A stretch of DNA of 46,243 bases from positions 1 to 46,243 of the forward strand of contig MEXE01000042.1 of NCBI GenBank assembly GCA_001775555.1, written 5' to 3'. The notes under the pieces are model-generated. The model saw nothing but the letters and a program-made list of their open reading frames with translations, was not told the DNA's origin and searched no databases. The first letter of the stretch is position 1. Each line of letters opens with the position of its first letter. Of the stretch, positions 3,093 to 42,747 are shown piece by piece. The translations under genes and the position numbers were made by a program. Source of the stretch: Candidatus Amesbacteria bacterium RBG_19FT_COMBO_48_16 (GTDB lineage Bacteria; Patescibacteriota; Microgenomatia; CAZETR01; Amesbacteraceae).

Positions 3093-4997
3093 ATGTCCAA
3101 AATAATCGGTATTGATCTCGGAACCACTAATTCTTGTGTGGCCGTAATGGAAGGCGGTCAGCCCAAAGTCATCCCCGCTGCCGATACAGGTCGTAACATT
3201 ACTCCTTCTGTCGTGGAGCCGGTCAAAAACTTGGTAGGGGACGTGGCCAAACGCCAGATGATCCTAAATCCCAAAAACACTATTTACAGTATCAAGCGTC
3301 TCATGGGTCGTAAATCCACGGACCCTGAGGTCAAACGTACCGAAGGCATGGTCCCGTACAAAATCGTTTCCGGTAAAGACAACATGGCCACGGTGGAAGT
3401 GGAGGGCAAGTCCTATACCCCCCAGGAGATCTCAGCTCAGGTTTTACGAACCATGAAAGCTCACGCCGAAGCCTACCTGGGTAGCCCCGTTGATCGGGCA
3501 GTTATCACCGTGCCGGCATATTTTGATGACTCCCAACGCCAGGCTACCAAACAAGCGGGTGAGATTGCCGGTCTCAAGGTGGAACGGATTATCAACGAGC
3601 CGACGGCAGCCGCGTTAGCCTATGGCCTGGACAAAAAAAACGCTCATACTGTGGCCGTTTATGATTTAGGTGGGGGTACTTTTGATATTTCCATTCTCGA
3701 ACTGGGGGACGGAGTATTTGAAGTCAAGTCCACCAACGGCGACACCCATTTAGGGGGGGACGACTTCGACCAGGCAATAATGGACTGGATCGTTGCCGAG
3801 TTTAGAAAAGACCACGGTGTTGACCTGAAAAAAGACTCTCAGGCTCTTCAGCGTATCCGCGATGCGGCCGAAAAAGCCAAAATAGAGCTTTCCTCCAGCC
3901 TTGAGTATGAAATCAACCAGCCTTACATTACCCAAAAGGACAGCCAGCCTCTTCACTTAACCCTGAAATTAACCCGGTCCAAACTTGAATCCATCGTTGA
4001 TGAGTTGATCCAAAAGACTACCGCGCCGGTCAAAGCTGCCTTAAAAGACGCTAAAAAGGAGAGTAAAGACATAGATGAGATAGTGTTGGTTGGGGGTATG
4101 ACCCGTATGCCGAAAGTCATAGATACTGTCAAAAACCTTTTCGGCAAAGAACCCAACAGGAGTGTCAATCCCGACGAAGTGGTAGCTATCGGAGCGGCTA
4201 TCCAGGGCGGAGTCCTGACCGGCGACGTCAAAGATGTCGTGCTTCTGGATGTCACTCCCCTGACTCTCGGCTTGGAGACTCTGGGCGGAGTTATGACCCC
4301 GCTTATTGAACGGAACACTACTATCCCTACCAGTAAGTCCCAGATTTTTTCGACTGCCGCCGATAGTCAAACTTCTGTCGAAATCCATGTCCTTCAGGGC
4401 GAGCGTCCCATGGCAGCAGACAACAAGACTTTAGGCCGCTTCATTTTGGACGGCATCCCTCCCGCCCCCCGGGGAGTTCCCCAAATCGAAGTCGCTTTCG
4501 ATATTGACGCCTCCGGAATTCTCAAAGTCTCTGCCAAAGACAAAGCCACCGGCAAATCCCAGCATATCACCATCACCAACTCGACTAATCTGGACGAAAA
4601 GGAAGTCGAACGCATGCGCGCCGAAGCCGAGAAACATGCATCCGAAGATTCTACCAAAAAAGCCCATATCGAAGCTCGTAATCAAGCCGATTCCCTGATC
4701 TTCACTGCCGAAAAAACTCTCAAAGATGCCGGCGAGAAAGCCCCGGCTGATCTCAAATCCGAGGTCGAGGATAAGTCCAAGGCATTAAAAGATATTTTGG
4801 AAACCGGCACTAAGGAAGACCTGGACGCCAAATCCAAAGACCTGATGGATTCGCTGCAAAAACTGGGTTCCTCTATGTATCAGCAAAGCCAGGCTCAAAC
4901 CCCTCCCTCCGATCAAACTGCTGACGGTGATCAACCCAAACCCGAAAACAAGGGTAACGATAAAAGTACTCCCGAAGAAGGCGAAGTCGTGAATTGA
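3093..4997 (+). CDS. dnaK: Chaperone DnaK (Hsp70)
   Basis: 634 aa. [25 protein letters not shown] and [12 protein letters not shown] are Hsp70 signatures. Confidence 0.98.
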
Positions 4998-17717: not shown

Positions 17718-18339
17718 ATCTTTTAATCAGCGCCTCCAGCGCTTCACTGGTTATCACTAATTGTTTATGGGCTATTATCAAATATGTATTCAATTCATCT
17801 GTCGTTATGGTAGTAACTTTAATTATGTTCCGCCAGGCTCGTTTAACTTCCTCCTGTCCCTTCTGTGTCACCATTAAAATCCTCTCCCCCTGCAACTGCA
17901 TTTTATTAACAGCCTCAGTTATATTTTTGGTTTTTTTTGTCACCTTTTTTGTTCCGGCTAACACTTTGATTGCCCCGGCTGCCGCTTTTTCGGACAACGC
18001 GCCGATTATCGCAGCCTGTCGCATCTTGGCAGGCATTTTCAGACTATAATTTTGTTTGCCTGTCGGGCCGTGGGCTACTCCTCCTCCTACAAAAATGGGT
18101 GCTGCGTACGATCCGTGCCTGGCTCTGCCGGTTCCCTTTTGCCGGTACATTTTTGCCGTGGTTTTGGCCACATCAGCCCGGGTTTTGGTCTTGGCCAGCG
18201 CCTTTCTTTGATTGCTTAAATATACCCGCACCGCTTGCGCCATAACTATCGGCTTTACTTTTGCTCCGAATATTTTTTCCGGCAATTTTATCTTTTCACC
18301 CTGCTGGCCTTTGATATCGTAAGTTGCAGCTGTAATCAT
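17707..18339 (-). CDS. rplD: 50S ribosomal protein L4
   Basis: KGTGRARHGSYAAPIFVGGGVAHGP. Confidence 0.94.
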   Translation of the reverse strand: MITAATYDIKGQQGEKIKLPEKIFGAKVKPIVMAQAVRVYLSNQRKALAKTKTRADVAKTTAKMYRQKGTGRARHGSYAAPIFVGGGVAHGPTGKQNYSLKMPAKMRQAAIIGALSEKAAAGAIKVLAGTKKVTKKTKNITEAVNKMQLQGERILMVTQKGQEEVKRAWRNIIKVTTITTDELNTYLIIAHKQLVITSEALEALIKRYAA

Positions 18340-18914
18340 TCGCTTTTTCTGACCATTAATAATGTACTTTTGTTTGCTCCCGGCACTGCTCCTCTAATTA
18401 TTACCAATCTCTTTTCTCCGTCCACATCCAAAACTTTCAATCCGGTAACATTTACTCTTACGTTTCCCATATGCCCCGCCATCCGTTTGCCTTTGAGTAC
18501 CCGCCCCGGAGTAGTAGTCGAGCCGATCGACCCCGGAGCCCTCTCCCTGTCGGATTGACCATGGGTTCTCGGACCGCCGGCAAAGCCGTGTCTTTTTACC
18601 CCTCCTGCAAATCCCTTTCCCTTGCTTGTCCCGGTTACCGCCACTATATCGCCGGGCTTCAGTACTTCTTCCAATTTTATCTCCGTTCCCACTTCGGGTT
18701 TCTCGTCGCTCCTGACCTCTCTAACCGATTTCTTATTTTTAAATCTTAAATCATCAATCATAAATCTTACCGCTTCGTATCCGTGCTTCTCCTTCGTCCT
18801 TAAATCTGCCACCTTCATCGGCAAAACCCACAGCACTGTCGCCCCCACCCGTTCTCCATCAGGTGTGTATTTTCCGGTCATCCCGGATTTAATCGCAAAA
18901 AAAGTATTAAGCAT
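18336..18914 (-). CDS. rplC: 50S ribosomal protein L3
   Basis: MLNTFFAIKSGMTGKYTPDGERVGATVL...FAGGVKRHGFAGGPRTHGQSDRERAPGSIG. The start is placed at ATG 18914 rather than the track's 18971. Confidence 0.93.
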   Translation of the reverse strand: MLNTFFAIKSGMTGKYTPDGERVGATVLWVLPMKVADLRTKEKHGYEAVRFMIDDLRFKNKKSVREVRSDEKPEVGTEIKLEEVLKPGDIVAVTGTSKGKGFAGGVKRHGFAGGPRTHGQSDRERAPGSIGSTTTPGRVLKGKRMAGHMGNVRVNVTGLKVLDVDGEKRLVIIRGAVPGANKSTLLMVRKSE

Positions 18915-18928
18915 AATCTTCAGCCAAC

Positions 18929-18948
18929 AAAAAAGCGCCGGTAGGCAC
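18929..18948 (-). terminator. Weak terminator-like hairpin just upstream of rplC
   Basis: The minus strand reads GTGCC-tacc-GGCGC-TTTTTT, a 5-bp stem with one G:U pair and a 6-T run, about 15 nt before the rplC ATG. Confidence 0.25.
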
Positions 18949-19112
18949 TTTATTTTTGACAAGGGAGCCAACCGATCTTAGTCTGAGCAATAGTGTTGGC
19001 GCGTCTTTCTGCTCACAACCAAAGCTAATTCTAGCACAGAAACAAGTCTCCCGCAATAACTTATCGCCTAAGTATCCGTATCCGGCCCTTCCATAGTTCC
19101 ATTCTATATCTC

Positions 19113-19150
19113 TTACATCTTCACTTCAATATCCCGTTCTTGCTGGCCAG
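19113..19150 (-). repeat. Relic copy of the rpsJ 3' end (direct repeat of 19637-19672)
   Basis: ACATCTTCACTTCAATATCC at 19115-19134 is identical to 19639-19658, the last codons of rpsJ. Weaker similarity continues to ~19150 and ~19672. The relic would read ...DIEVKM-TAA. Confidence 0.8.
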
Positions 19151-19156
19151 GGTATG

Positions 19157-19477
19157 TTATAGCCAACCCAGGAAATCATCTCCTGATCCGCTCCTATTCT
19201 TAGGGGAGGATTTTAAATACGCACCAGGCACATTATCCAAGCCTTGTAGTTGGGCTAATCTTTGGGCTGACCCGGTAACCCCTAAATTATTTGCCACCAC
19301 CTCCTCTTGGGTTATCCCCGTGTCTCCACAATAGCTCTTCATCTCTCTAGACCCAGGTACCAACGGTCTTCCATTTGTTCCCACTACGAAACCTTTTGCG
19401 CCCGAGCCCTCATCAGTGTAGGTATGCCTATCTACATAGGCAGCCCACAAACTACCCACTACTATCGAAGCTACCAT
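19157..19477 (-). CDS. Hypothetical small membrane-anchored protein (106 aa) in the rpsJ-rplC insert
   Basis: ORF with an N-terminal hydrophobic helix MVASIVVGSLWAAYV. The segment GDTGITQEEVVANNLGV...LQGLDNVPGAYL is weakly LysM-like. GGAGG lies only 1 nt from the ATG, which is poor spacing. Confidence 0.35.
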   Translation of the reverse strand: MVASIVVGSLWAAYVDRHTYTDEGSGAKGFVVGTNGRPLVPGSREMKSYCGDTGITQEEVVANNLGVTGSAQRLAQLQGLDNVPGAYLKSSPKNRSGSGDDFLGWL

Positions 19478-19604
19478 ACCTCCCCGCGATATAAACTAAC
19501 AAATCCACCTGCTCCCACCATTCCTTGAATCCCACTGCCGGAGATTCGGCTATCTTACCCAAAACATTAGCTGCTGTACTTATAAGATGCGCTTCAATTG
19601 ACAT
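19452..19604 (-). CDS. Possible 50-aa ORF (MSIEAHLISTAANVLGKIAESPAVGFKEWWEQVDLLVYIAGRYGSFDSSG)
   Basis: Found by manual translation and below the track cutoff. It starts 32 nt after the rpsJ stop and overlaps the 106-aa ORF by 26 nt in another frame. No SD is visible. Confidence 0.15.
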   Translation of the reverse strand: MSIEAHLISTAANVLGKIAESPAVGFKEWWEQVDLLVYIAGRYGSFDSSG

Positions 19605-19636
19605 AAAGACGAAAAACAGACAACTCTAGGGTAATA

Positions 19637-19945
19637 TCACATCTTCACTTCAATATCCACTCCTGCCGGCAGATCCAGGTGCGACAAGCCCTCGATGGTT
19701 TTATCCGTCGGGTCCACAATATCAATCAGTCGCTTGTGCACCAGCATCTCATAATGGTCCCGGGCGTTTTTGTCCACATGCGGAGAAGTCGTTACTACAA
19801 TCAGTTTTCGATCGGTAGGTAAGGGGATTGGCCCAATCACTTTAGCGCCTGTGGTTACCGCCGCATCCAGTATTTTGGCTGCCGCTTCATCTATAACTCT
19901 GTGGTCGAACGATTTTAATTTTACTCGCAATCTCCCCTTTGCCAT
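19637..19945 (-). CDS. rpsJ: 30S ribosomal protein S10
   Basis: RVKLKSFDHRVIDEAAAKI...GPIPLPT... Confidence 0.95.
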   Translation of the reverse strand: MAKGRLRVKLKSFDHRVIDEAAAKILDAAVTTGAKVIGPIPLPTDRKLIVVTTSPHVDKNARDHYEMLVHKRLIDIVDPTDKTIEGLSHLDLPAGVDIEVKM

Positions 19946-19985
19946 ATCAAGGTGCTACTTAGCACTTCGTACTTAGTACTTAGTA

Positions 19986-21164
19986 CTAGCTTATAATTTT
20001 TGTGACTACCCCGGCTCCCACGGTCTTGCCGCCTTCGCGGACGGCAAACCGCAAGCCTTCTTCCAAGGCCACCGGGACAATCAGTTTTACCGTCATTTTG
20101 GCGTCATCTCCCGGCATCACCATTTCGACGCCAGAAGGCAGGGTCACTTCTCCCGTCACATCCGTAGTCCGGATATAAAACTGCGGCCTGTACCCCGTAA
20201 AAAATGAAGTATGCCTGCCCCCCTCTTCTTTTTTCAGGATATATACCTGGGCCTCAAACTCAGTATGCGGGGTTACTGTTCCCGGTTTGGCGATCACCTG
20301 TCCGCGCTCCACCTTATCCTTATCAATTCCCCGAAGCAGTAAGCCTACATTGTCTCCTGCCTGTCCTTCATCCAACGACTTGCGAAACATTTCCACTCCG
20401 GTAACCACCGTCGACTGCGTCGGCTTAATCCCTACGATTTCTACCGTCTCGTTGACTTTTACCACCCCCCGCTCAATTCTCCCGGTTACCACCGTCCCCC
20501 GGCCTTTGATCGAGAACACATCCTCGACCGGCATCAGGAAAGGCTTATCCAGCTCCCGCACCGGAGTCGGGATATATTCATCCACCTTTGCCATTAGCTC
20601 CACTATCGCTTCCTCAGCTTTGGCGTCCCCCTCGGTTGCTTTCAGGGCAGAGCCGCGAATTATCGGCACCTCATTTCCCGGATAACCGTACTTTGTCAAA
20701 AGCTCCCGTACCTCCATTTCTACCAGGTCCAGCAATTGCGGATCATCCACCATGTCCGTTTTATTCATAAACACCACGACCGCCGGCACATTCACCTGCT
20801 TGGCCAGTAAAATGTGTTCTCGTGTTTGCGGCATCGGTCCGTCGGGCGCTGATACCACCAAAATCGCCCCGTCCATTTGCGCAGCTCCCGTAATCATATT
20901 CTTGATATAGTCGGCATGCCCGGGAGCGTCAATATGGGCGTAATGCCGTTTCTCGGTTTCGTACTCCTGGTGTGACAGGTTAATGGTTACTCCCCGCGCT
21001 TTTTCTTCCGGCGCCGAATCAATTTCGTCGTATTTTTTGGCAGTAGCCAGTCCCTTTTTGGCCAGAACCACAGTGATGGCCGAAGTCAGCGTGGTCTTGC
21101 CGTGATCCACATGACCGATAGTGCCGATGTTGACATGAGGTTTAGAGCGGACAAATGTTGCCAT
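19986..21164 (-). CDS. tuf: Elongation factor Tu
   Basis: [35 protein letters not shown] and NKTD. The start is placed at ATG 21164. Confidence 0.98.
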
Positions 21165-21257
21165 ATGCGAAAAAATCCAGTCCTTTCGAACTAATACCAA
21201 ATTTTAAAGTATAAATTTCCTCGGCGCAAGAGGTAAATTCACCCTTTTGCATTTGGC

Positions 21258-23402
21258 TTAAGCCGCCACTTTCCCGCTCTTGGTGATGATACCCTCGGCA
21301 ATGTTTTTGGGTACTTCCTCATAATGTGACGGTTCCATGTAGTATGACGCCCGGCCTTGGGACAAGGAGCGCAGCTTCGTCGCATACCCGGACAATTCCG
21401 CCAGGGGAGCAAAGGCGTTAATGATCGTCAGGTGCCCTCTTTTGTCCGTCCCCGAAATCTGCGCCCGCTTGGAGGACAGATCCCCGATGACTTCCCCCAT
21501 AAATTCATCCGGTGCGGACACTTCCACTTTCATTACCGGCTCCAAAAGCGTCGGTTCTGCCGCCTTGGCTGCGTGTTGGAAGGCCATCGACCCGGCGATT
21601 TTAAACGCCATTTCCGATGAGTCTACATCGTGGTACGTCCCGTCATACAAAGTAATCTTCACATCCACCGTCGGGTACCCGGCCAAAACCCCGTTTTCCA
21701 GCGCGTCTTTTATCCCTTTTTCTACTGCCGGAATGAACTCTCCCGGTATAGCTCCGCCCTTAATGGCATTCACAAACTCGTATCCAACTCCCCGGACCTG
21801 GGGCTCTATTTTTATAAAGCAGTGTCCGTACTGGCCCCGCCCGCCGGATTGGCGGATATATTTGCCTTCCCCTTCGGCTGATTTCTTTACGGTTTCCTTG
21901 TAAGCTACTTGCGGAGCGCCCGTCCCCGCATCTACGTTAAATTCCCGCTTCATCCGGTCCACGATAATCTCCAGATGTAGCTCTCCCATCCCCGAAATGA
22001 TTGTCTGCCCCGTCTCATGATTGGTTTTTATAGTAAAGGTCGGGTCTTCGTCCGATAATTTATTCAACGCATAACCCATTTTTTCCTGATCCGCTTTGGT
22101 CTTAGGTTCGATAGCCAGGGAAATTACCGGATCCGGAAAAGTTATTGATTCCAGTACAATCGGGGCTCCTTTATCGCACAGCGTATTCCCCGTTGTAGTC
22201 TCCTTTAATCCCACCAAAGCCACAATCTCTCCCGCAAACGCCTGGTCGATTTCTTCCCGTTTGTTGGCGTGCATCAGAAGCATCCGCGACACCCGTTCTT
22301 CTCGGTCTTTGGTGGCGTTATAGACCGCTTGTCCCGACTTCAGCATGCCCGAATAAATCCGCAGGTAAGTCAGGCGCCCTACATGCGGATCGGTTTGGAT
22401 TTTGAAAGCCAGGCCGGAAAACGCCTCTTCGTTGACGGTTTTCCTGACAGTTTCCTCACCGGTTTTTGGATTTATCCCTTTGACATGGTCAATGTCCACC
22501 GGGCTGGGTAAATACTCCACAATCGCGTCCAGCATCGGCTGCACCCCCTTGTTTCGCAAAGAAGCCCCGGCGTAAACCGGCACCATTTTATATGCGATTA
22601 CAGCTTTTCGCAAAGCAGTTTTCAGCTCTTTTACGGGCGGCTCATTACCCGCCAGAAACTGTTCCAGAAGCATGTCATCCGTTTCGCAGATTTGCTCAAC
22701 TAGTTTTGACCGCCAGGTTTCCACAACCGTTGTCATGTCCGACGGGATCTCTTCCTCCGTGAATTTGGTTCCGGTTTCATCCCCCTGCCATACCAGCGCC
22801 TTTCTTTCCAGAAGCAGGACCACTCCCCGGAAGGAATGCTCTGCCCCGATGGGGTAGGTCATCACTGCCGGATTGGCGCCCAATCTCTCGATTACCGCTT
22901 TCACTGTCCCTTCAAAATTAGCTCCCAGTTTGTCGTTTTTGTTTACAAAAATTATTCGGGGGACTTTATATTTATCCGCTTGCCGCCACACCGTCTCTGT
23001 TTGTGACTGCACTGTTTCCTCCGCGTCCAAAACCGTGACCGCTCCGTCCAAAACCCGCAAACTTCTCTCCACTTCCGCCGTAAAATCCACATGCCCCGGC
23101 GTATCGATGATATTCACCCGGAAGGCTTCGTTACCGACCGGCGAATTCGGGTCGGTTACCGCCCAAAACGTCGTAGTGGCCGCCGAAACAATTGTGATCC
23201 CTCTTTCCCGCTCCTGGGCCATCCAGTCCATTTGCGTCGTCCCTTCGTCAATATCCCCGATCTTGTAGCTCTTGCCTGTGTAATACAAAATCCGTTCCGT
23301 CGTCGTCGTCTTCCCCGCGTCGATATGGGCAATTATCCCAATATTCCGCACCCGATCCAACGGCACATTCCTGTTCGTAGTCTTAATATCTCCTGCAGCC
23401 AT
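21258..23402 (-). CDS. fusA: Elongation factor G
   Basis: IGIIAHIDAGKTTTTERILYY and DTPGHVDF; 714 aa. Confidence 0.98.
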   Translation of the reverse strand: MAAGDIKTTNRNVPLDRVRNIGIIAHIDAGKTTTTERILYYTGKSYKIGDIDEGTTQMDWMAQERERGITIVSAATTTFWAVTDPNSPVGNEAFRVNIIDTPGHVDFTAEVERSLRVLDGAVTVLDAEETVQSQTETVWRQADKYKVPRIIFVNKNDKLGANFEGTVKAVIERLGANPAVMTYPIGAEHSFRGVVLLLERKALVWQGDETGTKFTEEEIPSDMTTVVETWRSKLVEQICETDDMLLEQFLAGNEPPVKELKTALRKAVIAYKMVPVYAGASLRNKGVQPMLDAIVEYLPSPVDIDHVKGINPKTGEETVRKTVNEEAFSGLAFKIQTDPHVGRLTYLRIYSGMLKSGQAVYNATKDREERVSRMLLMHANKREEIDQAFAGEIVALVGLKETTTGNTLCDKGAPIVLESITFPDPVISLAIEPKTKADQEKMGYALNKLSDEDPTFTIKTNHETGQTIISGMGELHLEIIVDRMKREFNVDAGTGAPQVAYKETVKKSAEGEGKYIRQSGGRGQYGHCFIKIEPQVRGVGYEFVNAIKGGAIPGEFIPAVEKGIKDALENGVLAGYPTVDVKITLYDGTYHDVDSSEMAFKIAGSMAFQHAAKAAEPTLLEPVMKVEVSAPDEFMGEVIGDLSSKRAQISGTDKRGHLTIINAFAPLAELSGYATKLRSLSQGRASYYMEPSHYEEVPKNIAEGIITKSGKVAA

Positions 23403-23765: not shown

Positions 23766-23780
23766 TATCACCCCTTTGAT

Positions 23781-23803
23781 CCCCCTCTTAATTTAAGAGG
23801 GGG
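23781..23803. repeat. Palindromic hairpin repeat, copy A (CCCCCTCTTAA-T-TTAAGAGGGGG)
   Basis: Perfect 11+1+11 palindrome in the dnaJ 5' leader. It is followed by AAGGAGGGGGTGATATTTATG. Confidence 0.9.
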
Positions 23804-24726: not shown

Positions 24727-24743
24727 ATTTCACCTCTCTAGCT

Positions 24744-24764
24744 CCCCTCTTAATCTAAGAGGGG
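24744..24764. repeat. Palindromic hairpin repeat, copy B (CCCCTCTTA-ATC-TAAGAGGGG)
   Basis: It begins 17 nt after the dnaJ stop and also encodes the last codons and stop of the DUF559 pseudogene on the minus strand. Confidence 0.9.
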
Positions 24765-25122
24765 AGGACCAATTCAATTTTATGAAGTACTTGAGAGAGA
24801 TTATTTTTAACTTCCCAATTCCAGAACCTAATTAACTTGATCCCCCAGGCATTGAGCAATTCAGTGCGGTATTGATCGTAAATTTTTTGACCCAAATTTC
24901 TATGAACAGCACCATCTACTTCAATAGCCAATTTTCCTTTCGGACAATAAAAATCGACGACATAACCTTCTACACTGTACTGTATTGTCTAATAAACTTA
25001 TACCCAAGAGTACTCTTCTTAAGACAACTCCATAAGATTTTCTCAGCTTCAGTGGCGTGATTTCGCAACTCTTTTCTTCTTGATTTGAGGGATGAAGTAT
25101 TAAAAATATACCGTCGCCTCAT
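24755..25122 (-). pseudogene. DUF559 (Vsr/restriction-endonuclease-like) protein gene, frameshifted
   Basis: Manual translation gives MRRRYIFNTSSLKSRRKELRNHATEAEKILWSCLKKSTLGYKFIRQYS, then a frameshift, then VEGYVVDFYCPKGKLAIEVDGAVHRNLGQKIYDQYRTELLNAWGIKLIRFWNWEVKNNLSQVLHKIELVLPS. The frameshift is a 5-bp tandem duplication, ACTGT-ACTGT at 24974-24983. Removing one unit restores a 121-codon ORF (120 aa plus stop). Confidence 0.8.
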
Positions 25123-25142
25123 AATCAGAGTTTATGCAATTT

Positions 25143-25163
25143 CCCCTCTTAAATTAAGAGGGG
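25143..25163. repeat. Palindromic hairpin repeat, copy C (CCCCTCTTAA-A-TTAAGAGGGG)
   Basis: It is followed by tgccgcAGGCGGGGTGATAT, which parallels copy A's aaacctgaaAGGAGGGGGTGATAT. Confidence 0.9.
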
Positions 25164-25239
25164 TGCCGCAGGCGGGGTGATATAAACAAAATCCTGGAAG
25201 AATTTGAGGAGACTTAAAGTGTTAATATAATGTATAAGT

Positions 25240-29667: not shown

Positions 29668-29754
29668 CGAAAGTTTGGTTGGTTTTCAGCTCTCACTTTC
29701 GCTGTATCTCTCGCCTTTTTATTGCAATTTTAGTTTGATTTTTCCCGAAACGTT

Positions 29755-29777
29755 CTCCCTCTTAAGTTAAGAGGGAG
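29755..29777. repeat. Palindromic hairpin repeat, copy D (CTCCCTCTTAA-G-TTAAGAGGGAG)
   Basis: Perfect 11+1+11 palindrome. It is followed by atgcaAGAGGGAGttataaaaATG, the rpsO SD and start. Confidence 0.9.
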
Positions 29778-34200: not shown

Positions 34201-35856
34201 ATGGGCCAGTTAAAAATCATTCCCCTCGGCGGTTTCGGTAACGTCAACACCAACATGTTTGTCTATGAACTGGACAACGATATTTTGTTGGTTGATTGTG
34301 GTATTGGCTTTCCATCCGAAGACATGCTAGGTGTAGATGTTCTGATTCCGGACATCTCCTACCTCAAAGACAAGCTTTCTAAAATCAGGGGTCTGGTCAT
34401 CACTCACGGTCACGAAGACCATATTGGCAGTTTACCCTACATTTTACCCAAACTTCCGGACGTTCCCGTATACGCTTCTCGGCTTCCGGCCGCTTTAATT
34501 ATCGATAAGTTGAGCGAGTACCAGAGTATACCCCAAAATATTCATGTTTTACCCCAGAGACAACCGCTGTATCTGGGTCAATTTACCATTGAATCCATTC
34601 ACGTGACTCATTCCATACCCGATTCCACTCATCTTTTAATTTCCACACCCGAGGGGACTGTTTATCATGGTAGTGACTTCAAATTTGATTTCACCCCAGT
34701 TTATAAAGACTTCTCCGATCTTCAAAGAATTGCCCAGGCAGGGAGCCAAGGAATAGATTTATTATTATCGGATTGCTTGGGAAGCGAGCGTAAGGGGTAC
34801 ACCCCGTCGGAAACCACCTTAGACGATACGTTTGACCGCGAACTCACAGACTGTCCGGGTAAGTTTATTGTTACTTCCATAGGGAGTAATATCAGCCGTT
34901 GGTATCAGGCCTCCAAAGCAGCCGTCCGTAACGGTCGTAAAATTGTCCTAGCCGGCAGAAGCGTAGATCGTAATCTGGCTGTAGCCAAGAAATTGGGCTA
35001 TTACGATATTCCCCAAAATTCGTTTGTACAGTTGCATCAGGCCAAAAGACTGCCTCCCAATAAAATTTGCGTTTTAGCCGCCGGTTCTCAAGGTCAGACC
35101 GGCTCTGCTCTGGAAAGAATAGCCTCTGGTGATCATCGTGACATCACTCTCCAGCCATATGACAAAGTGGTTTTTTCCTCCGATTACATTCCTGGCACTG
35201 AAGCGTCCGTTGCCACTGTTATTAACGAGTTATCCCGCAAACAAGCCACGGTTGTCTATACCGCCATCACTGACAATTTGCATGTTTCAGGCCATGGCAG
35301 TCAGCAGGATCTTCTCTTATTATTAAGCCTCACCCGGCCTAAATACGTCCTCCCGTTTGGGGGTAATTACAATCAAATGGTTCAATATTCACGACTAGCT
35401 AAGTCTATGGGTTACCCAACCCAAAAGATTTTTTTACCCATGACTAATCAGACAGTCATTGTCTCAAATAAACAAGCCAGTCTTGGTCCAACTGTTTCCA
35501 TCAGAAACATCATGGTTGACGGTTTAGGTATTGGTGACGTCGGAGAAGTTGTTTTGCGTGACCGGCAACAGTTAGCCGAAGAAGGAGTAGTAATTGCTGT
35601 TCTCGAGGCTGACCAAAACGATCTGTCCAGCTTGGTCAACTTCGAATTGGTCAGCCGGGGATTTGTCTTTGAAAAGTACAGCACTGATTTGTTAAGCCGA
35701 GCCTCCGACCGAGTCAAAAAAGCCATTGCCACCAAACGCGGGAAAATTGAATCGGACCGGCACCTCAAACAACTAGTCATCGATACCCTCGGCCGCTATT
35801 TGTTTGAACAGACCCACCGTCGCCCCATGATTCTCCCTGTTGTGGTGGAAGTGTAG
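34201..35856 (+). CDS. rnj: Ribonuclease J
   Basis: Metallo-beta-lactamase HGHEDHIGSLPY plus beta-CASP and C-terminal domains; 551 aa. Confidence 0.93.
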   Translation: MGQLKIIPLGGFGNVNTNMFVYELDNDILLVDCGIGFPSEDMLGVDVLIPDISYLKDKLSKIRGLVITHGHEDHIGSLPYILPKLPDVPVYASRLPAALIIDKLSEYQSIPQNIHVLPQRQPLYLGQFTIESIHVTHSIPDSTHLLISTPEGTVYHGSDFKFDFTPVYKDFSDLQRIAQAGSQGIDLLLSDCLGSERKGYTPSETTLDDTFDRELTDCPGKFIVTSIGSNISRWYQASKAAVRNGRKIVLAGRSVDRNLAVAKKLGYYDIPQNSFVQLHQAKRLPPNKICVLAAGSQGQTGSALERIASGDHRDITLQPYDKVVFSSDYIPGTEASVATVINELSRKQATVVYTAITDNLHVSGHGSQQDLLLLLSLTRPKYVLPFGGNYNQMVQYSRLAKSMGYPTQKIFLPMTNQTVIVSNKQASLGPTVSIRNIMVDGLGIGDVGEVVLRDRQQLAEEGVVIAVLEADQNDLSSLVNFELVSRGFVFEKYSTDLLSRASDRVKKAIATKRGKIESDRHLKQLVIDTLGRYLFEQTHRRPMILPVVVEV

Positions 35857-38800
35857 ATATACCAAACTCACCAAACATCCAACCCTCTTCTCCGTCAAAC
35901 TTGATAAGGAGCCAGCCGTCTTGTTCTTTAAGAAGTTGGAAAGTTTGGCCGACCTGGACCTTCGCGACTACCTCGGCGCTTTTCATAGGTGTACGGCGGA
36001 CTAGTATCCAGTCATTTTTGTTGCCGACCACTTCAACCAACGGCTTTTTGAGTAGCTGACCCTCGGTGCTGGTCCCTTTGACTTGCGCACTCTTGTTAGA
36101 CGGGGTAGTCAGGGTGTAATAGGCGTCATAGACATAATTTTTGTTTTGGCTCATGACTTCAAAAAAGTAAGTTTTGCCAGCTTCTAAATTAGTTAGCTCC
36201 ATTCTGTGTTCTTTTACCCGCTCACTCGATTGGACTTTACTGCCATACGACGTATCAAAACCATAGTTGACTGCTGAAGTGGCATGATGGTTGGTCAGCC
36301 AATGGATGACGGCGGAAGTAGGGGTCACAGCCTCTACCTTTACCAAGAGAATCTTTGTCGGTTCTTTGTCAAACCATACTTCTTTGTAAATTTCAACGGT
36401 TAGTTGTGTTTTAGCCACTAAACGGTCTGCTTTTTGAGTAATACTGTCTGTTACTCTAGCCAATGGATTTGTAATTTTTCCCATCGCCAAAGCTGTGTTT
36501 TGAGCAAGAGCAGTGGTTATTATTCCCACACTGTTTGCCGCGCTGGCAATTACTGATCCTGTTTTTTGCAGGGTATTGGTTATGGCTTTTGCTACAAAGT
36601 TGGCTGTATTTCCAATTCCGGTCAAAATTATCTTGGCTACCCCCGGCGCATTATTAGCTAAACGGTTATATCCCTCGCCAATAGATTTGGCAGTGTTACC
36701 GATGCCTTGTCCGACTGCTACTAATAATGTTTGGGTTGTCTTTCCGAAAGCAGTAAGTATTTGGCCAACTCCTCGCCCCACAAAGGCTAGGCTTTGGGTA
36801 ACCGCATAAGCGGCTCGACCAATAATTGTTTTTGTGAAAGCATCGGTTTTTTGATTGGTTCCAATAACGAATGCCTGGTACCTACTCCAGGCGGTTGCCA
36901 GTGAATTCGTGGTGGTCTTGCCCGTATCGACCAATCCCCACCAAAGATTAGCTAAAGTTTCGGCGATCTTTGAACCAACAACTTCCAGGACATTCGGTTT
37001 TTCAACCGCCGTAGGTTTAGTGATTTCCAGTTCTTCTTTGACTTTTTCTTTTTGCTCCGGTGCTAGCGGTTTGGTTTCTTCCTCAATTATTTTCTTTTCT
37101 TCGGGTGTGGTTATTTGAGCCAGAGTAGTGACATTTAACGTTAGCGTTGTTTCGCTTGAAGGGTTATCCGCTTTATCTTTTCCGGTTAATGTAATTTTGT
37201 ATGTCCCGTAATCTAAGGTATCTTTGGATGTGTATTCAAAAGTCAAATATTTGTCGCATTTCTGTTTTGAATTATCAGCAACCTCTTTACCGTCACAACT
37301 CCACCAAGGTTTATCCATGTTGATGGTGTAGAGGGTTATCAGTTTGTACCCTAGTCCTTCTTTCTTCTCAACTTTTATCTCAACTTGCTTGGGACCGGAA
37401 GCAATTTTTGGTCCATTTTCATCCTGGGTCTGAGTAGAATCCCCACCGGCAAGTGAATCAGTGATTTTGCCAAAGATAGTCGGGGTTTTATCGGTTGTAG
37501 AAAAATTAGTTGAAGAAAAAGGAATATCGTTAATTTGGGTCAGTTCTACTTTTGGACTGTTTCTGTCTACAAACAAAGTTCTTGAACTTGACGTTTCATT
37601 CCCTGCATTATCAACTGCCCTTACCTTCCAAGAAACTCTCCCTTCCCGCAGTTTCCCGTCATTTTGGCCGGAGTTACTGTCAGAGCTCCATTCACTCGAA
37701 GACTTGGTATAAACAGAAATGTAGTTATTGGTCGAATCGGAATCGGAAAAGTTCTCGTAATGAATGAGGTATTTATTTGTTTCGTAGTCGGTGGTTCTTG
37801 AAGTGGGAATGTCGTCAATGGTGAAGTCACCGCTGGCTTGCCCTGAGCCTGCCGAAGGGTTATCTATTTCCAAAACATACTTTGAAAGTCCGGCGGTGGC
37901 ATCAGTTGTAGCCTTCCATCTAAAAGTAGGTCTTTCTGAATTTGTATAAGTATCTCCTCCCGGCGAATCTAAGTCAAATGAGGCAGGAGCAGTGGTATCA
38001 ACAGTAAAAGTATCAGAAGCGTTAGTTGAGGTATTAGAAGCATTATCCGTAGCTCTGACGTAAACCGTATGTTCCCCATCGCTTAAGCTTGAAAGCTGAC
38101 AAGTGAAAGCCTCTTCTGCTTCATCAAAGTTTGAGTCATCTGCACTACAGCTGGTCCATGACCCTGAAGTTGCATCCACCTGGAATTCCACTGTTGAAAT
38201 GGTGCCTCCGGTATCAGTGGCTGTGCCGGATATGACGGGTGTGGAGTCGGTGGTGGGATCAGGTGAAACTGCGGTTAGGCTAACACTCGGTACTCCCGCA
38301 TCCACGCTAAATGAATCTGTCCCGTAATCAACCTCTGCCGTGGTGTTGGCGGCTTCATCCGTTGCCCGCACATAAACAGTATGGCTGCCGTCTGCCAACG
38401 CTTCAGTTGTACAGGAAAAGTCTTCTTCCGTCTCATCGATTGTTCCGTCTGTTGCAGTACAATCAGTCCAGCTGCCTGCAACGGAATCTACTTGAAATTC
38501 AATGTCTGTCAAAATGGTGGTCCCGCCATTGGCCGTTCCCGTAAATGCTGGTGTATTGTCAGATGTGGGATCAGGAGTCAAAGCGGTCACACTGACACTC
38601 GGAGCCGTGGTATCCACTGTCACACTGCCTTCGCTTTCACTGCCCAGATTAGTGGCATTGTCAACGGCTTTGACAAAAAACGAATAGATGCCTTCTGCCA
38701 GATTGGTGGTGGCGGTAAGAAGTGCAGTCGTTCCTGAGGCCACCTGGGTTAAAGCTGCATCAAGAACTCTCCAGGCATAAGAGGCCACACCCGAAAGTGC

Positions 38801-41800
38801 ATCAGTGGCAGCAGACCAGACCCAGACTTGGGTGGTGGAGTTGGTAGGAGTATCAGTTGTAGGAGTTCCCGGAAGTCCAGGTGCTGTGGTGTCAACGGTA
38901 AAGGTATCACTGCTCTCGCTTCCACCGGCTGTAGTATTGCCGTTTGAATCAGTGGCCCGCACATAAATAGTATGTTCCGCATCAGACAGGGCAGAGGTGG
39001 TGCAAGTGAAAGCCTCTTCTGCTTCATCAAAGGTGGCATCATCAGCCGTACAGGCTGTCCAGCTGGCTCCGGAGCAATCACCTCCTGCACAGTCCATGGT
39101 AAATTCAACAGTTGATACTGTGCCGATGGCTTCTGTTGCTGTTCCGGTTAAATTCGGAGTATTATCATTATTCGGATCTGGTGATAAAGCAGTTAAAGAA
39201 ATACTTGGGGCAGTGTTGTCAAAAACAATGCTACTGAATGTGGCATCTCCCTGGTTGCCTCCTGATGTGTCACTTCCAAAGTAGACGGTGTTGGGAGCTG
39301 TGCCAAATGCAGATGGGATTGAGGATAAAGTAATTCTAGTAGTTCCTCCCACCTTAAAGGTCATGGTTGAGCTACCGGTGTATGCCACTTCTGCTGCATA
39401 TTCGGTATTGGCAGCAATTGCACTGGTGGCATCCCACGTCCCTGTTCCAGTGGTTCCTGCCATTGAATAATCCATCTTTACATTATTGGCTGAATCCCAA
39501 TAGACTTTGATGTAATCATCCGCATCACCATTGAAAGAGATAACGTAGGCATCATCGCTCGTTGTCTCGGCAAACTTGACGCTATCTGCTCCAGCATGAC
39601 GGGGACGGAAATTAAACGACACAAACCCAGACGTGGTCCCGATTGATGAAGCGGAACTTTGCACATACGTATCCCTCCCATCCACCCGAATCTCATCCGT
39701 ATTTTCAGTCGAATTGGCCTCCGAAGCTGGGGTGACTGTAAGAGAAACATCTGTGAGTTGAAATTGATACACATCATCAACAAATCGATTTCCAGTCGCC
39801 GAGGATTTTGGATTTATACTAATCCTTTCTGCCGCAGTACTTTGAGTACGGTAAATGGCATAAAGGGGGTTCCAAGAAGCAAGTATTGATGAATTTACTT
39901 GATCGTTTGACGTTTCATTTTGAAGAATAAATTGAGCACCTGCCCCTTCGAGCCTGAATCCAACTCCGCCATCACCATACGTATATAAACCTGTCGAGTA
40001 AAATTTACTTCCAGTAACTGTTCTGCTTGGGTTTTCCCATACCACTTCATTGGCCGCTCCTGTATTAAACTGGATTGAACTCGAACCACTGTGAACAATT
40101 GTAAGACTCTGGCTACTATCGCCTGCATCAAGGTTACCTCCAGCCCAACCATCAGGAATCCACGGATCTCCGGAACCTGTTTCCATTGATGGTTTGTTGA
40201 CTAAGTTACTCAGCACCTCCACCTGGTGCCAGTAGGCGGTGCCTGAAGCTTGGGTATTCACCAGCTTCACTCTGAGCGTAGTCGAAGAGGCCGGGGCTTC
40301 ACCGGTGAAGATAAAAACATTTGGTGCGGCGCGGGTGCTGGTCGTTGTACCGGTAAGAGAACCTATTTCGGCCCCGTTGGTCTGGTCATAAAGAATGACT
40401 TTGGGAATACTTGTGCCATCCGAGTGGGCAATGGCTCTTATCACCCAATCATCTCCTGCGGTTACAGTTTTGTCATAATAGATCCCCTGATTCGCCGCAG
40501 ATGAGGTAGTCTTATACCCTCCTGCAAATATTTTTTCAGAAGTGGAAAGTGCTGAAACTGTAGGAGGAGCTGTGTAGTTGACGACGAGTTTTGGACGATA
40601 GGCGGCGGTAGCGTTATCTGAAGATGCAATAGAGGTTCCACCATTACTCGGATCAAACAGTATTCCATAATTTGTGTTAGTTTCTCCAAACCATTCCTGA
40701 ACCCGGCTAGCTGTTAACTGTGTCGAATATTCTGTTCCGATAGGGTCAGTTTGATTTCCAGAAAAAGAACCAATAACATCAGATTCATAATCAGTACCAG
40801 CCGTCGACAATCCTGCAGATCCAGCCCAAGGTGTTTCATTACCAGGAGTTTGATCTTTATAGCTCCAACAACTATCCCCAGCTACACCTGTAGCATTATT
40901 TTTCGTTCCTTCAGGCCAATCTGCATTACCGGAGGCAACAGAATAGACACTGACAGTCCAGGCTCTATCAGTACCAGTATTGTTTCGATATGTATATAGT
41001 GTTGCGCTATTTAAAATAGCTGAAGCAGAAATATTACTTAAATCGAATTCAATAAGAGCTTTATCAAAAGAGGAAGTTAATAAAATATTATGTGTTCCAT
41101 AATTTCTAGTGATATCGTTACTATATGAATATAACCTTGTATCTTTCCCAGCTGTCTCATCTGGTTGTAAAGTCAAGCTTTGCGTATCACCATTTTCTGT
41201 TGCCCAACCATCCGAAGTATATGTCCCGTTCATCATGAACCCGCCAGTGTTGGTGGTGGAGGTATAGAGAAGATTTGATGCATGCGGATGTGTCCAGGCA
41301 TTGCCGGTGCCTGTCGCGAGCGCACCCGTTGAAGAATTAGTGGGAAGGGCAAACACCACATCCCAGCTTCCGGTAATCAAAGTCGGATCATTTCCGCTTC
41401 CGGAGTTGTAAATCTGATTTATCTCATCCCCATTGCCTACATCAATTCCATATGTGCCGTCAAAAAGTGGGCGGCGATATATGGTCAAGCCTTCGATAAC
41501 AGAATCGGATGCAAGCGATGTATTACTAGCACCAGCGTAAAAATTAGTATTTGTCGAGGGGGATGGGATAGTGGTGACACCATAAGTATGTGAATCGTTA
41601 ACTGAAAGTGAGAGGTAGTTAGTACCATTCAACGTGTTATCAATATCCCACCTGGCAATCACGTTGTATGTTGTGCCAGCAGTCCAGGTTGAAGCATCTA
41701 CATCAACTATCTGTCCTCCTACATTAAATCTTAGATTATTATTTGAAAATTTAAAAAGGGCTCCGCCGCTTGAACCCTGACGCCACAGGTAGTGATTTTT

Positions 41801-42274
41801 TCCGTCATTACCATTCCATTCCGGAGTAACCCACATCACAACCGATCCCTGATTCAAATCATAGACATTTTTAAATTCACTAGATAATGTTGTGCTTGAG
41901 GTGTATCTTAAATTGTCAGGTGTACCGGTTCCATCATAATTTCCTTGTACAATCGGTGCTCCCGCAAACGGTCCCGGCCCGTCTCTTTTGGCCATCCCGG
42001 CAGTGAACGTGACTGCGTATGCAGGAAGTACCGATGATAAGAAAAGGGAGAGGATGAGGAATAAGGATATGAAATTTCTCGTCGCTGCGCTCCTCGAAGA
42101 ATAAACAGGTATTATTGTTCGAACGAAGTGAGAACTACGAGCGGTCGGAAACAGACTTCTCGCTAGCGCTCGAAGAGTAATACCGGACAATATCGTTCGA
42201 ATGAAATGAGAACTAAAAGCCAACCGTCCAAAACTTCTCACCTTCGGTTCGAAGAATAGTAACTTTTTCAGCAT
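35777..42274 (-). CDS. Giant multidomain cell-surface protein (~2165-2175 aa): membrane anchor, LamG-like, DNRLRE-like, Ig-like repeats, G/A/T-rich segment, FN3, SH3b
   Basis: A single uninterrupted ORF. The hydrophobic anchor is NFISLFLILSLFLSSVLPAYA (~42015-42076). A concanavalin/LamG-like region spans ~41450-42010. A DTRLYS...ALIEFDL...YRPKLVVNY region resembling DNRLRE domains spans ~40575-41150. The segment ~39215-40575 was not assigned, although AYVISFNGDADDYIKVYW...MTFKVGG suggests a second LamG-like region. Three VDTTAP-delimited Ig-like modules plus an interposed module span ~37990-39215. A Lys/Glu linker, a G/A/T-rich segment (~36400-36985), an FN3 domain (~36110-36400) and an SH3b domain (~35860-36060) follow. 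The start is ATG 42274 or ATG 42304. No canonical start codon lies nearer the anchor. Confidence 0.85.
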   Translation of the reverse strand: MLKKLLFFEPKVRSFGRLAFSSHFIRTILSGITLRALARSLFPTARSSHFVRTIIPVYSSRSAATRNFISLFLILSLFLSSVLPAYAVTFTAGMAKRDGPGPFAGAPIVQGNYDGTGTPDNLRYTSSTTLSSEFKNVYDLNQGSVVMWVTPEWNGNDGKNHYLWRQGSSGGALFKFSNNNLRFNVGGQIVDVDASTWTAGTTYNVIARWDIDNTLNGTNYLSLSVNDSHTYGVTTIPSPSTNTNFYAGASNTSLASDSVIEGLTIYRRPLFDGTYGIDVGNGDEINQIYNSGSGNDPTLITGSWDVVFALPTNSSTGALATGTGNAWTHPHASNLLYTSTTNTGGFMMNGTYTSDGWATENGDTQSLTLQPDETAGKDTRLYSYSNDITRNYGTHNILLTSSFDKALIEFDLSNISASAILNSATLYTYRNNTGTDRAWTVSVYSVASGNADWPEGTKNNATGVAGDSCWSYKDQTPGNETPWAGSAGLSTAGTDYESDVIGSFSGNQTDPIGTEYSTQLTASRVQEWFGETNTNYGILFDPSNGGTSIASSDNATAAYRPKLVVNYTAPPTVSALSTSEKIFAGGYKTTSSAANQGIYYDKTVTAGDDWVIRAIAHSDGTSIPKVILYDQTNGAEIGSLTGTTTSTRAAPNVFIFTGEAPASSTTLRVKLVNTQASGTAYWHQVEVLSNLVNKPSMETGSGDPWIPDGWAGGNLDAGDSSQSLTIVHSGSSSIQFNTGAANEVVWENPSRTVTGSKFYSTGLYTYGDGGVGFRLEGAGAQFILQNETSNDQVNSSILASWNPLYAIYRTQSTAAERISINPKSSATGNRFVDDVYQFQLTDVSLTVTPASEANSTENTDEIRVDGRDTYVQSSASSIGTTSGFVSFNFRPRHAGADSVKFAETTSDDAYVISFNGDADDYIKVYWDSANNVKMDYSMAGTTGTGTWDATSAIAANTEYAAEVAYTGSSTMTFKVGGTTRITLSSIPSAFGTAPNTVYFGSDTSGGNQGDATFSSIVFDNTAPSISLTALSPDPNNDNTPNLTGTATEAIGTVSTVEFTMDCAGGDCSGASWTACTADDATFDEAEEAFTCTTSALSDAEHTIYVRATDSNGNTTAGGSESSDTFTVDTTAPGLPGTPTTDTPTNSTTQVWVWSAATDALSGVASYAWRVLDAALTQVASGTTALLTATTNLAEGIYSFFVKAVDNATNLGSESEGSVTVDTTAPSVSVTALTPDPTSDNTPAFTGTANGGTTILTDIEFQVDSVAGSWTDCTATDGTIDETEEDFSCTTEALADGSHTVYVRATDEAANTTAEVDYGTDSFSVDAGVPSVSLTAVSPDPTTDSTPVISGTATDTGGTISTVEFQVDATSGSWTSCSADDSNFDEAEEAFTCQLSSLSDGEHTVYVRATDNASNTSTNASDTFTVDTTAPASFDLDSPGGDTYTNSERPTFRWKATTDATAGLSKYVLEIDNPSAGSGQASGDFTIDDIPTSRTTDYETNKYLIHYENFSDSDSTNNYISVYTKSSSEWSSDSNSGQNDGKLREGRVSWKVRAVDNAGNETSSSRTLFVDRNSPKVELTQINDIPFSSTNFSTTDKTPTIFGKITDSLAGGDSTQTQDENGPKIASGPKQVEIKVEKKEGLGYKLITLYTINMDKPWWSCDGKEVADNSKQKCDKYLTFEYTSKDTLDYGTYKITLTGKDKADNPSSETTLTLNVTTLAQITTPEEKKIIEEETKPLAPEQKEKVKEELEITKPTAVEKPNVLEVVGSKIAETLANLWWGLVDTGKTTTNSLATAWSRYQAFVIGTNQKTDAFTKTIIGRAAYAVTQSLAFVGRGVGQILTAFGKTTQTLLVAVGQGIGNTAKSIGEGYNRLANNAPGVAKIILTGIGNTANFVAKAITNTLQKTGSVIASAANSVGIITTALAQNTALAMGKITNPLARVTDSITQKADRLVAKTQLTVEIYKEVWFDKEPTKILLVKVEAVTPTSAVIHWLTNHHATSAVNYGFDTSYGSKVQSSERVKEHRMELTNLEAGKTYFFEVMSQNKNYVYDAYYTLTTPSNKSAQVKGTSTEGQLLKKPLVEVVGNKNDWILVRRTPMKSAEVVAKVQVGQTFQLLKEQDGWLLIKFDGEEGWMFGEFGISTLPPQQGESWGDGGSVQTNSGRGYR
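37990..39215 (-). repeat. Intragenic tandem Ig-like modules (~100 aa each)
   Basis: Three paralogous modules of the form (V/I)S(L/V)TA(L/V)(S/T)PDP..D.TP...GTA......(S/T)..EF.(M/V)D...(A/G)SWT.C.A.D...DE.EE.F.C......L.D..HT.YVRATD, plus one interposed module (VWVWSAATDALSGVASYAWRV). Confidence 0.8.
42073..42265. repeat. ~80-bp tandem repeat, ~2.4 copies, at the 5' end of the giant gene
   Basis: The units start at 42073, 42155 and 42233 with A(T/C)TTCTC...(T/C)TCGAAGA(A/G)TA...(T/C)GTTCGAA(C/T)GAA(G/A)TGAGAACTA. On the minus strand they encode the repeated SSHF(I/V)RTI...RS peptide. Confidence 0.75.
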
Positions 42275-42747
42275 AATTTTCAATTTTAAATTTACAATTT
42301 TCATTGAATTTTCAGTTTATTAATTTTCATTTAATACTTTCTTCTTTGAAACGATTTTAGAAAAGATCAGGTTAAATTCCTGCGCTTCTTTCCATAAATC
42401 ACGGCATTCTTGCTTTAAGTTTTCATCGTCTAAGGCATTACCAAGAAGTCTTAGCCAATATTTCGTTTCCCTCGATTCTTTTTTACAAATAAATATCTTG
42501 CTATTGAAGTCTTTTTTACTTGATGCACCATTAGCTTCACAATAATTGGCTCCAATACTTGTTCCAGAGCGGATCAACTGATCAAGTATTGGAATCGTGA
42601 CTGGGTTTTTAGGACATCTCTTGCACAGATCAACTATCCTTTCGGCAAAAACAGTTGTTCTCTCCTCCAAATCGTATTTATTTGAAACTTGAGTCATTGT
42701 TCAAATGTAAATTGATTGAAAATTGAGAAATGAAAATTGAAAATTAT
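42273..42747. mobile_element. ~475-bp cassette carrying the four-helix-bundle gene, bounded by A/T-rich inverted repeats
   Basis: ATAATTTTCAATTTT at 42273-42287 is the exact reverse complement of 42733-42747. The flanking ~40 nt on each side are similar in composition and motifs. The right repeat forms the aberrant C-terminus of the Bro-N fragment. Confidence 0.4.
42320..42697 (-). CDS. Four-helix-bundle protein (23S rRNA intervening-sequence protein / Avd family)
   Basis: 125 aa. ...LIRSGTSIGANYCEANGASSKKDFNSKIFICKKESRETKYWLRLL is the hallmark of this family. Confidence 0.85.
   Translation of the reverse strand: MTQVSNKYDLEERTTVFAERIVDLCKRCPKNPVTIPILDQLIRSGTSIGANYCEANGASSKKDFNSKIFICKKESRETKYWLRLLGNALDDENLKQECRDLWKEAQEFNLIFSKIVSKKKVLNEN

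Follow-up and report, generated by a model that had tools for sequence, protein, structure and literature searches.

Copies of the rpsJ 3' end bracket unrelated inserts between rpsJ and rplC in Amesbacteria and other Microgenomates

Integrative and conjugative elements (ICEs), integrative and mobilizable elements (IMEs) and prophages integrate at the 3' ends of housekeeping genes, with tRNA, tmRNA, fda, rpsI, rplL and rpmG genes serving as targets in streptococci, and their integrase-less derivatives are known as cis-mobilizable elements (CIMEs). In naturally transformable bacteria, foreign DNA can also be joined to the chromosome by Campbell-type or homology-facilitated illegitimate recombination. 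To our knowledge, insertion of this latter kind has never been shown for bacteria of the Candidate Phyla Radiation (CPR). Here we describe an insert between the ribosomal protein genes rpsJ and rplC in a 46,243-nt stretch (the window; positions 1-46,243) of contig MEXE01000042.1 of Candidatus Amesbacteria bacterium RBG_19FT_COMBO_48_16. The insert is bracketed by a duplicated 3' end of rpsJ. In at least seven further lineages of Microgenomates, copies of this gene end, here called tail copies, likewise flank unrelated inserts, with up to three copies per locus. The best reading of these observations, which we hold with moderate confidence, is that single-crossover insertions have occurred repeatedly at the rpsJ tail, each leaving rpsJ and the putative rplC promoter undamaged.

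The locus shares with ICEs, IMEs and CIMEs the placement of an insert behind a regenerated gene 3' end, with the direct repeat at the other side formed by the displaced original end. Related loci show tandem accretion to three or more copies, and a tyrosine recombinase is present at one of them (L129; labels of this form denote the loci or contigs compared with the window). Unlike these elements, the 524-bp insert of the window carries neither a recombinase nor another mobility gene, the repeat length varies between events, ordinary chromosomal genes are found among the cargo, no circular form or attP was found in our searches, and the rpsJ tail that serves as the target seems to double as a promoter -35 element. 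Membership of the window insert in this class of elements is not established.

In homology-facilitated recombination, a single short conserved anchor, in this case the rpsJ tail, would account for the duplicated end as well as for a 5' boundary that varies and for cargo that is unrelated. The homology at the tail is, however, only 20-47 nt. There is also a resemblance to phage morons, in that a single small gene (function unassigned) lies between two conserved genes and beside a promoter-like sequence. Unlike morons, however, it occupies a chromosomal ribosomal locus and is bracketed by a duplicated gene end. A literature search found nothing on rpsJ-tail duplication or on a split S10 operon in CPR bacteria.

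The duplicated rpsJ end

All genes in this part of the window are on the minus strand, in the order fusA (21258-23402), tuf, rpsJ, a 722-nt gap, rplC, rplD, rplW and the remainder of the ribosomal block (Table 1). The preliminary description of the window had drawn attention to the 722-nt separation, which the open reading frame (ORF) coordinates bear out, and to a perfect recurrence of the last 20 nt of rpsJ. Indeed, the 20-mer ACATCTTCACTTCAATATCC is present in exactly two copies. One comprises the last rpsJ codons and the first base of the functional TGA stop (19637-19639), whereas the other, hereafter the relic, has its own in-frame TAA stop (19113-19115), also as described. No match to the 20-mer was expected by chance, as 100 shuffles yielded none, even at a tolerance of three mismatches. 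Among the exact direct repeats of the window it ranks second in length, and the single longer one lies within a repetitive surface-protein gene. These findings support the proposal of an accessory insert bracketed by a duplicated rpsJ 3' end. In contrast, the weaker similarity said to extend beyond the 20 nt is not significant within the window by a shuffle test. The flank of the relic does align with the true rpsJ ends of relatives, at about 8 of 14 positions with gaps.

Relatives with a short rpsJ-rplC gap reveal which of the two copies has been displaced. In four such loci (L210, L224, L226 and L227, the last three found via L3 and independently of the tail pattern), rpsJ ends with the codons ATT GAA GTN AAG ATG (...ATTGAAGTNAAGATG), followed by the stop codon, 6 nt, an extended -10 box (TGnTAnAAT), about 12 nt and then a conserved leader. 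The hexamer TTGAAG, part of the Ile-Glu-Val codons, is located 17-18 nt upstream of this strong extended -10 box. The relic of the window retains the same geometry, with a stop, 6 nt and TAGAAT, and with TTGAAG at 17 nt. Alignments also match the relic region to the genuine rpsJ termini in L210 and L224, as well as to the degenerate relic of the sister species L092. The functional rpsJ end is followed by a different sequence, TGATATTAC... Therefore, it is the relic that represents the original rpsJ end, now displaced, whereas the functional end marks the new junction, in agreement with the preliminary description.

This arrangement is reproduced in other assemblies. The exact S10 protein was indexed in 98 blocks of a public assembly collection and 24 contigs were read. 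Eleven loci were inspected, ten of them found via exact S10 and one via the insert ORF, from several Rifle samples, three NCBI metagenome-assembled genomes (MAGs) and MEGAHIT contigs. Nine of these 11 same-population contigs extend across the insert, and every one of them has it along with both repeat copies. They stem from different samples and assemblers (Rifle ANAN16 scaffolds, NCBI MAGs and MEGAHIT k141 contigs).

It is very unlikely that the structure is an artefact or chimera created during assembly by the 20-nt repeat or by strain mixtures, because nine further independent contigs span both junctions with identical sequence. Moreover, the repeat is below the final assembly k-mer size, and comparable structures exist in unrelated species. 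What speaks for an artefact is that two contigs (L090 and L091) terminate within the insert, that one spanning contig (L085) contains a run of N, and that L142 couples a window-type leader to the rplC of another species. The whole of L142 (1992 nt) consists of a window-type insert end, relic and 5' leader joined to an L129-type terminator and rplC. Its L3 is only 61% identical. Between two species with L3 proteins of 62% identity, the leader shows about 2 differences in 57 nt. L142 may have been joined wrongly during assembly, as a chimera across this near-identical leader, or else it is a genuine recombinant.

Promoter-like sites and the rplC leader

An extended -10 box, TGnTAnAAT, is present upstream of rplC in every Amesbacteria-like locus examined. 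Given its spacing from TTGAAG at true rpsJ ends, the 3' end of rpsJ probably doubles as the -35 region of the rplC promoter in this lineage. Across the tail copies, a -10 box matching at 5-6 of 6 positions with 17-nt spacing follows the copy nearest to rplC (the window relic, copy 3 of L095, the L131 relic and L210). The remaining listed tail copies, each of which is followed by an insert, all fall short of a 5/6 match.

Three promoter-like sites were noted in the gap of the window. The first (P1) has its -35 hexamer inside the relic. The second (P2) lies closer to rplC and is common to the window and the sister species L092, as read from the sequence and alignments; a consensus promoter scan missed it, as its -35 matches at only 3 of 6 positions. 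We do not claim that P2 is derived from an older tail relic, since the similarity is no more than the shared -35 and -10 elements explain. The third is a weak site at the functional rpsJ end, which could drive the inserted gene.

In Amesbacteria-like loci, a conserved leader begins about 10-12 nt past the extended -10 box, with the consensus ...TGTGRGCAGA..GCCAAC..TTGCTC..GTTGGC..., and is followed by a GC-rich hairpin and U-tract that end 0-25 nt before the rplC ATG. Both the GCCAA/TTGGC helix and the terminator were recovered by RNAalifold, each with compensatory changes. A covariance model of the leader has 11 instances at E<0.01, with 92% of cells paired and both partners changed in 16 cells. 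Shuffling never scored as high (0 of 500), and slid controls pair only 28-52% of cells. More divergent versions of the leader are present in L109 and L122, and perhaps in L125, L106 and L131.

The RNA is thus one with conserved structure, covariation and a terminator, located between a promoter-like site and the first ribosomal protein gene, as is characteristic of ribosomal protein leaders and attenuators. On these grounds it is a candidate for a new ribosomal protein attenuator in Amesbacteria and related Microgenomates. No Rfam family matched the window at the gathering threshold, and a search of 18700-20100 at E values up to 10 returned only two microRNA noise matches (E~7). Neither a known ribosomal protein leader nor a self-splicing intron was therefore recognized among the Rfam covariance models.

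In Escherichia coli, the S10 operon leader is the site of transcription attenuation mediated by L4. The Amesbacteria leader is similar in being a structured 5' leader with a terminator hairpin, located immediately upstream of a ribosomal protein operon that encodes L3 and L4. However, it precedes rplC rather than rpsJ and, unlike the known ribosomal protein leaders in Rfam, matches no family by sequence or structure. Its membership in the L4-controlled S10-leader family is not established.

The preliminary description had pictured the insert as lying inside a highly conserved operon and being co-transcribed with the ribosomal proteins. This view is not supported, given that rplC has a conserved putative promoter, leader and terminator-like hairpin and that the junction is hypervariable. 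The same features place the insert at what appears to be a transcription-unit boundary, one that Amesbacteria and their relatives would share between rpsJ and rplC.

Recurrent tail copies and the origin of the inserts

The rpsJ-rplC gap of Microgenomates measures between 71 and 7067 nt and holds unrelated cargo. This includes HicAB-like pairs, peptide-deformylase-like, TlyA-like methyltransferase and transposase-like genes and hypothetical proteins, assigned partly from translations. L3 and S10 assign the window to Candidatus Amesbacteria, one of the Microgenomates groups of the CPR, and the next closest species have an L3 that is only about 71-73% identical. In the sister species L092, the gap holds a 126-aa ORF, which was considered as a homologue of the 148-aa ORF of the window and proved to be unrelated.

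Three tail copies are present in L095 and in L137/L170, three plus a degenerate one in L129, and two in L131 (both perfect), L139, L204 and L103. L125 has one degenerate copy. All copies are on the same strand and downstream of rpsJ, and they are located between rpsJ and rplC wherever the contig includes rplC. Every relic ends in a stop codon. The 5' extent of the relics ranges from 20 to about 47 nt, the longer ones (26-47 nt) being found in other species.

We propose the following series of events. The fusA-tuf-rpsJ unit would end with rpsJ. Next to it, rplC would be the first gene of another unit, preceded by a promoter of the extended -10 type, a structured leader and a hairpin resembling a terminator. 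Ancestrally, the Ile-Glu-Val codons at the rpsJ end would have supplied the -35 element TTGAAG, and the -10 box would have followed 6 nt past the stop. A single-crossover (Campbell-type) insertion within the rpsJ tail would then give the order tail, insert, tail. In the window, such an event would have set a 148-aa orphan gene directly behind the regenerated rpsJ end, and would have moved the old end, together with its -10 box, 524 nt closer to rplC, where both would persist as the relic before the leader. An insertion that duplicates the tail is the only kind that preserves both rpsJ and the rplC promoter, and this would explain the footprint and its recurrence. The crossover might have been carried out by RecA acting on short homology or by a tyrosine recombinase; the data could not decide between a site-specific recombinase and general short-homology recombination after DNA uptake.

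Several observations weigh against this proposal. The multi-copy loci were found partly by a scan for the tail pattern, which biases their frequency, and the rest come from loci found via L3. In the window it is P2, not P1 of the relic, that is located at the canonical distance from the leader, and the promoter-like site of the relic may be redundant. The 20/20 identity of the two copies exceeds what a promoter needs and requires a recent event or gene conversion. The fold energy of the leader alone is unremarkable (z = -0.29). An empty site would read GGAGTGGATATTGAAGTGAAGATGTAAGAG at its junction. An empty-site pattern had no matches in metagenome contigs, nor was an empty-site allele of this species found. 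Finally, no donor or circular form was found. A circle would join ...AGAACGGGATATTGAAGTGAAGATGTGATATTACC, and a circle-junction pattern had no matches in viral contigs.

The insert itself had been called foreign DNA, but no donor was identified, as it matches neither phage and plasmid records nor viral contigs. The tail pattern gave three chance matches in viral contigs. Only one of these, L102, has an in-frame stop after it, and it lies inside an unrelated ORF.

An alternative is that the insert is a decayed site-specific integrative element, similar to a CIME, for which the rpsJ 3' end served as attB and the 20-nt repeat is the attL/attR core, the integrase having since been lost. Direct repeats that rebuild the 3' end of a gene are the classic footprint of integration, and the window has a perfect 20-nt repeat with TGA and TAA stops. 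Likewise, the three-copy tandem arrays in L095, L129 and L137 resemble accretion at one att site. Furthermore, the 7-kb rpsJ-rplC interval of L129 holds a tyrosine recombinase (PF00589 and PF02899) about 330 nt from its rplC-side end.

However, this recombinase is itself disrupted, and no integrase was found in the 524-bp insert or among the ten largest other window ORFs, which were scanned against Pfam. The 5' boundary of the repeat varies from 20 to 47 nt between loci. Viral contigs contain no attP-like copy and no relative of the L129 integrase, and neither a circular form nor an empty site was found in the metagenome and viral contigs searched. The presence of ordinary chromosomal genes among the cargo also argues against an integrative element. 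On balance, we regard this alternative as unlikely, though it has to be taken seriously.

A gene-end duplication footprint is also seen at a second gene. The 3' end of the L129 tyrosine recombinase is duplicated (L129:1834-2054 and 3824-4044, plus-strand coordinates; 221 nt, 74% identity), and between the two copies is an inserted gene for a 556-aa membrane/TPR protein.

The chromosomal genes found as cargo include a tmk-like gene and the gene for a conserved hypothetical protein of about 225 aa (protein X), which forms 99 clusters in Microgenomates and belongs to no Pfam or NCBIfam family. Protein X normally adjoins enolase or tmk (L220 and L222). In several Amesbacteria-like lineages it is instead found inside the rpsJ-rplC interval, directly 5' of a tail copy. 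Both genes are ordinary chromosomal genes that occur beside enolase in other Microgenomates. Protein X was considered as a mobility gene and rejected, because it is a conserved chromosomal gene located elsewhere in other genomes.

Transposons, insertion sequences (ISs) and miniature inverted-repeat transposable elements (MITEs), which are recognized by terminal inverted repeats and/or a transposase and by target duplications of 2-14 bp, were also rejected. There are no inverted repeats in 18700-20000 and no transposase domain, and the duplicated stretch measures 20 nt in the window and as much as 47 nt at other loci.

Another possibility is that no foreign DNA was involved. The rpsJ end and promoter would first have been duplicated locally in tandem, and the gene between the copies would have arisen de novo or been captured later. 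The ORF of the insert is an orphan, whose matches are its own alleles and, at E ~1e-4, Ig-like repeats of large surface proteins, and the gap resembles its flanks in GC content, as it does in skew. In addition, L109 has a mini tandem duplication exactly at the rpsJ stop (L109:184-215), where AGATGTAG occurs twice and is followed by an extended -10 box; this may be an intermediate form of the tail duplication. A duplication should, however, have copied the ancestral geometry of stop, 6 nt and -10 box, which the functional rpsJ end lacks, and the sequences after the two copies are unrelated. Clearly pre-existing genes also lie between the copies in other lineages. Considering these points, local duplication as the first step is improbable, and repeated single-crossover insertion remains our preferred reading.

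The inserted gene and the meaning of the junction

The preliminary description listed two overlapping ORFs of 50 aa and 106 aa in the insert. These are instead parts of one gene that is frameshifted in the window, because a G6 allele of a short G-tract, present in two contigs (L081 and L084/NCBI MEXS01), merges them into an intact 148-aa ORF. The GGGGAGG allele of the window and most contigs and the G7 allele of two contigs are both +1 frameshifts. The frameshift is positioned within the sole strongly hydrophobic segment of the protein (residues 34-56). The differences between assemblies in this tract could reflect phase variation, pseudogenisation or homopolymer error.

Downstream of the tract, a hypervariable patch separates the L081 haplotype from that of the window. 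Seven of the 16 changed codons are synonymous, including AGA>CGG, TTG>CTG and TTA>CTA, and the ratio of nonsynonymous to synonymous substitution (dN/dS) between the two haplotypes is about 0.41, with the other two frames fitting worse. These figures argue, modestly, for an ORF that is coding or was so until recently. The patch suggests old alleles and recombination, or diversifying selection on an exposed part of the protein. A target of a diversity-generating retroelement was considered and rejected, as the window has no template copy and long A-rich stretches are invariant. The ten largest other window ORFs, which were scanned, include no reverse transcriptase.

A word-based search with the protein returned only its own alleles, and an exhaustive HMMER scan added two matches (E ~1e-4) to repeats of about 70 aa in large fn3/Ig-like surface proteins. 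It has no family match in Pfam, PHROGs, NCBIfam or PDB, and the faint LysM-like stretch mentioned in the preliminary description has no counterpart among LysM families in Pfam, even at E values up to 10. A single-sequence AlphaFold2 model was unreliable (predicted local distance difference test score, pLDDT, of 53) and too poor for a fold search. In our reading, the product might be a small protein anchored in the membrane, with its C-terminal region exposed, and either decaying or phase-variable.

The window also encodes a 2175-aa protein (35777-42304, minus strand) with Big_13, Y_Y_Y and SH3 domains, whose gene has internal 59-nt DNA repeats that include a 30-nt exact repeat. It is a large surface protein of a type characteristic of CPR episymbionts, and it has no similarity to the insert protein. 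Two further observations concern the neighbouring genes. The tuf ORF (19986-21200, minus strand) has a mechanically assigned TTG start and 404 aa, compared with 392 aa in all related contigs, so that its true start is probably an internal ATG. GC-rich palindromes, TCCCCTCTTAAnTTAAGAGGGGA, are present in intergenic regions around dnaJ and nusA (23768-23802, 24730-24765, 25142-25166 and 29742-29776) and probably represent either terminator hairpins of a common type or a small family of repeats.

Table 1. Positions of features at the rpsJ-rplC junction of the window, and of protein X at related loci
Feature	Position	Strand	Basis or remark
rpsJ (ribosomal protein S10), 102 aa, stop TGA	19637-19945	-	ORF list; same protein carries PF00338 in L082 and others
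Weak promoter-like site at functional rpsJ end: TGGATA, 17 nt, TATTAC, with TG of the stop codon	19631-19659	-	score 4/6
Repeat copy 1, functional rpsJ 3' end, GGATATTGAAGTGAAGATGT on minus strand	19639-19658	-	
Insert body between tail copies (repeat unit 524 bp)	19135-19638	-	
5' part (50-aa ORF) of frameshifted 148-aa orphan gene	19452-19604	-	
G-tract frameshift site	19479-19485	-	GGGGAGG in window; G7 in L087, L090; G6 in L081, L084
3' part (106-aa ORF) of same gene, start inside the single predicted transmembrane helix	19157-19477	-	
Hypervariable patch	19268-19408	-	20 substitutions in L081; L089 shares the last 4; locus of about 1 kb otherwise identical
Repeat copy 2, relic (displaced original rpsJ end), own stop TAA	19115-19134	-	
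Promoter-like site P1: -35 TTGAAG inside relic, 17-nt spacer, -10 TAGAAT	19101-19129	-	
Promoter-like site P2: TTGCGG, 17 nt, TGcTAGAAT (extended -10), 7 nt 5' of leader	19028-19056	-	
Conserved rplC leader RNA (candidate attenuator): helix GCCAAC/GTTGGC, possible helix GAGCA/TGCTC, terminator	18926-19020	-	covariance model 87 bits
Intrinsic-terminator-like hairpin and U-tract just 5' of rplC start	18932-18951	-	compensatory changes across species
rplC (ribosomal protein L3), 192 aa, ATG at 18914	18336-18914	-	
Protein X in L095	2764-3363		
Protein X in L137	5319-6008		
Protein X in L170	2027-2716		
Protein X in L129	5384-6103		reverse-complement coordinates

The framing of this locus as foreign DNA inside a conserved operon is overstated, but the finding itself is real. 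Its more interesting content is the architecture in which a promoter would be embedded in a gene end, together with the recurrent insertions bracketed by tail copies and the candidate rplC leader. The supposedly universal linkage of rpsJ and rplC would be a transcription-unit boundary in at least one CPR lineage, with a putative rplC promoter embedded in the coding end of rpsJ. This overlap would give a functional reason for the duplication of the gene end at insertions. The junction is a recurrent hot spot of gene gain in otherwise streamlined genomes, and its footprint is a natural starting point for research into DNA acquisition by CPR bacteria. Annotation and phylogenomic pipelines that assume contiguous blocks of ribosomal protein genes should expect extra genes and pseudo-ends between rpsJ and rplC.

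A further idea, which is speculative and quite unlikely in our estimation, is that the rpsJ tail and its overlapping promoter are a dedicated landing pad in Microgenomates, where one specific mechanism, either a CPR tyrosine recombinase or very-short-homology recombination after uptake, captures DNA repeatedly. If so, each capture would duplicate a strong ribosomal promoter element, and an integron-style array of promoter-flanked cassettes would grow at the edge of the ribosomal super-operon.

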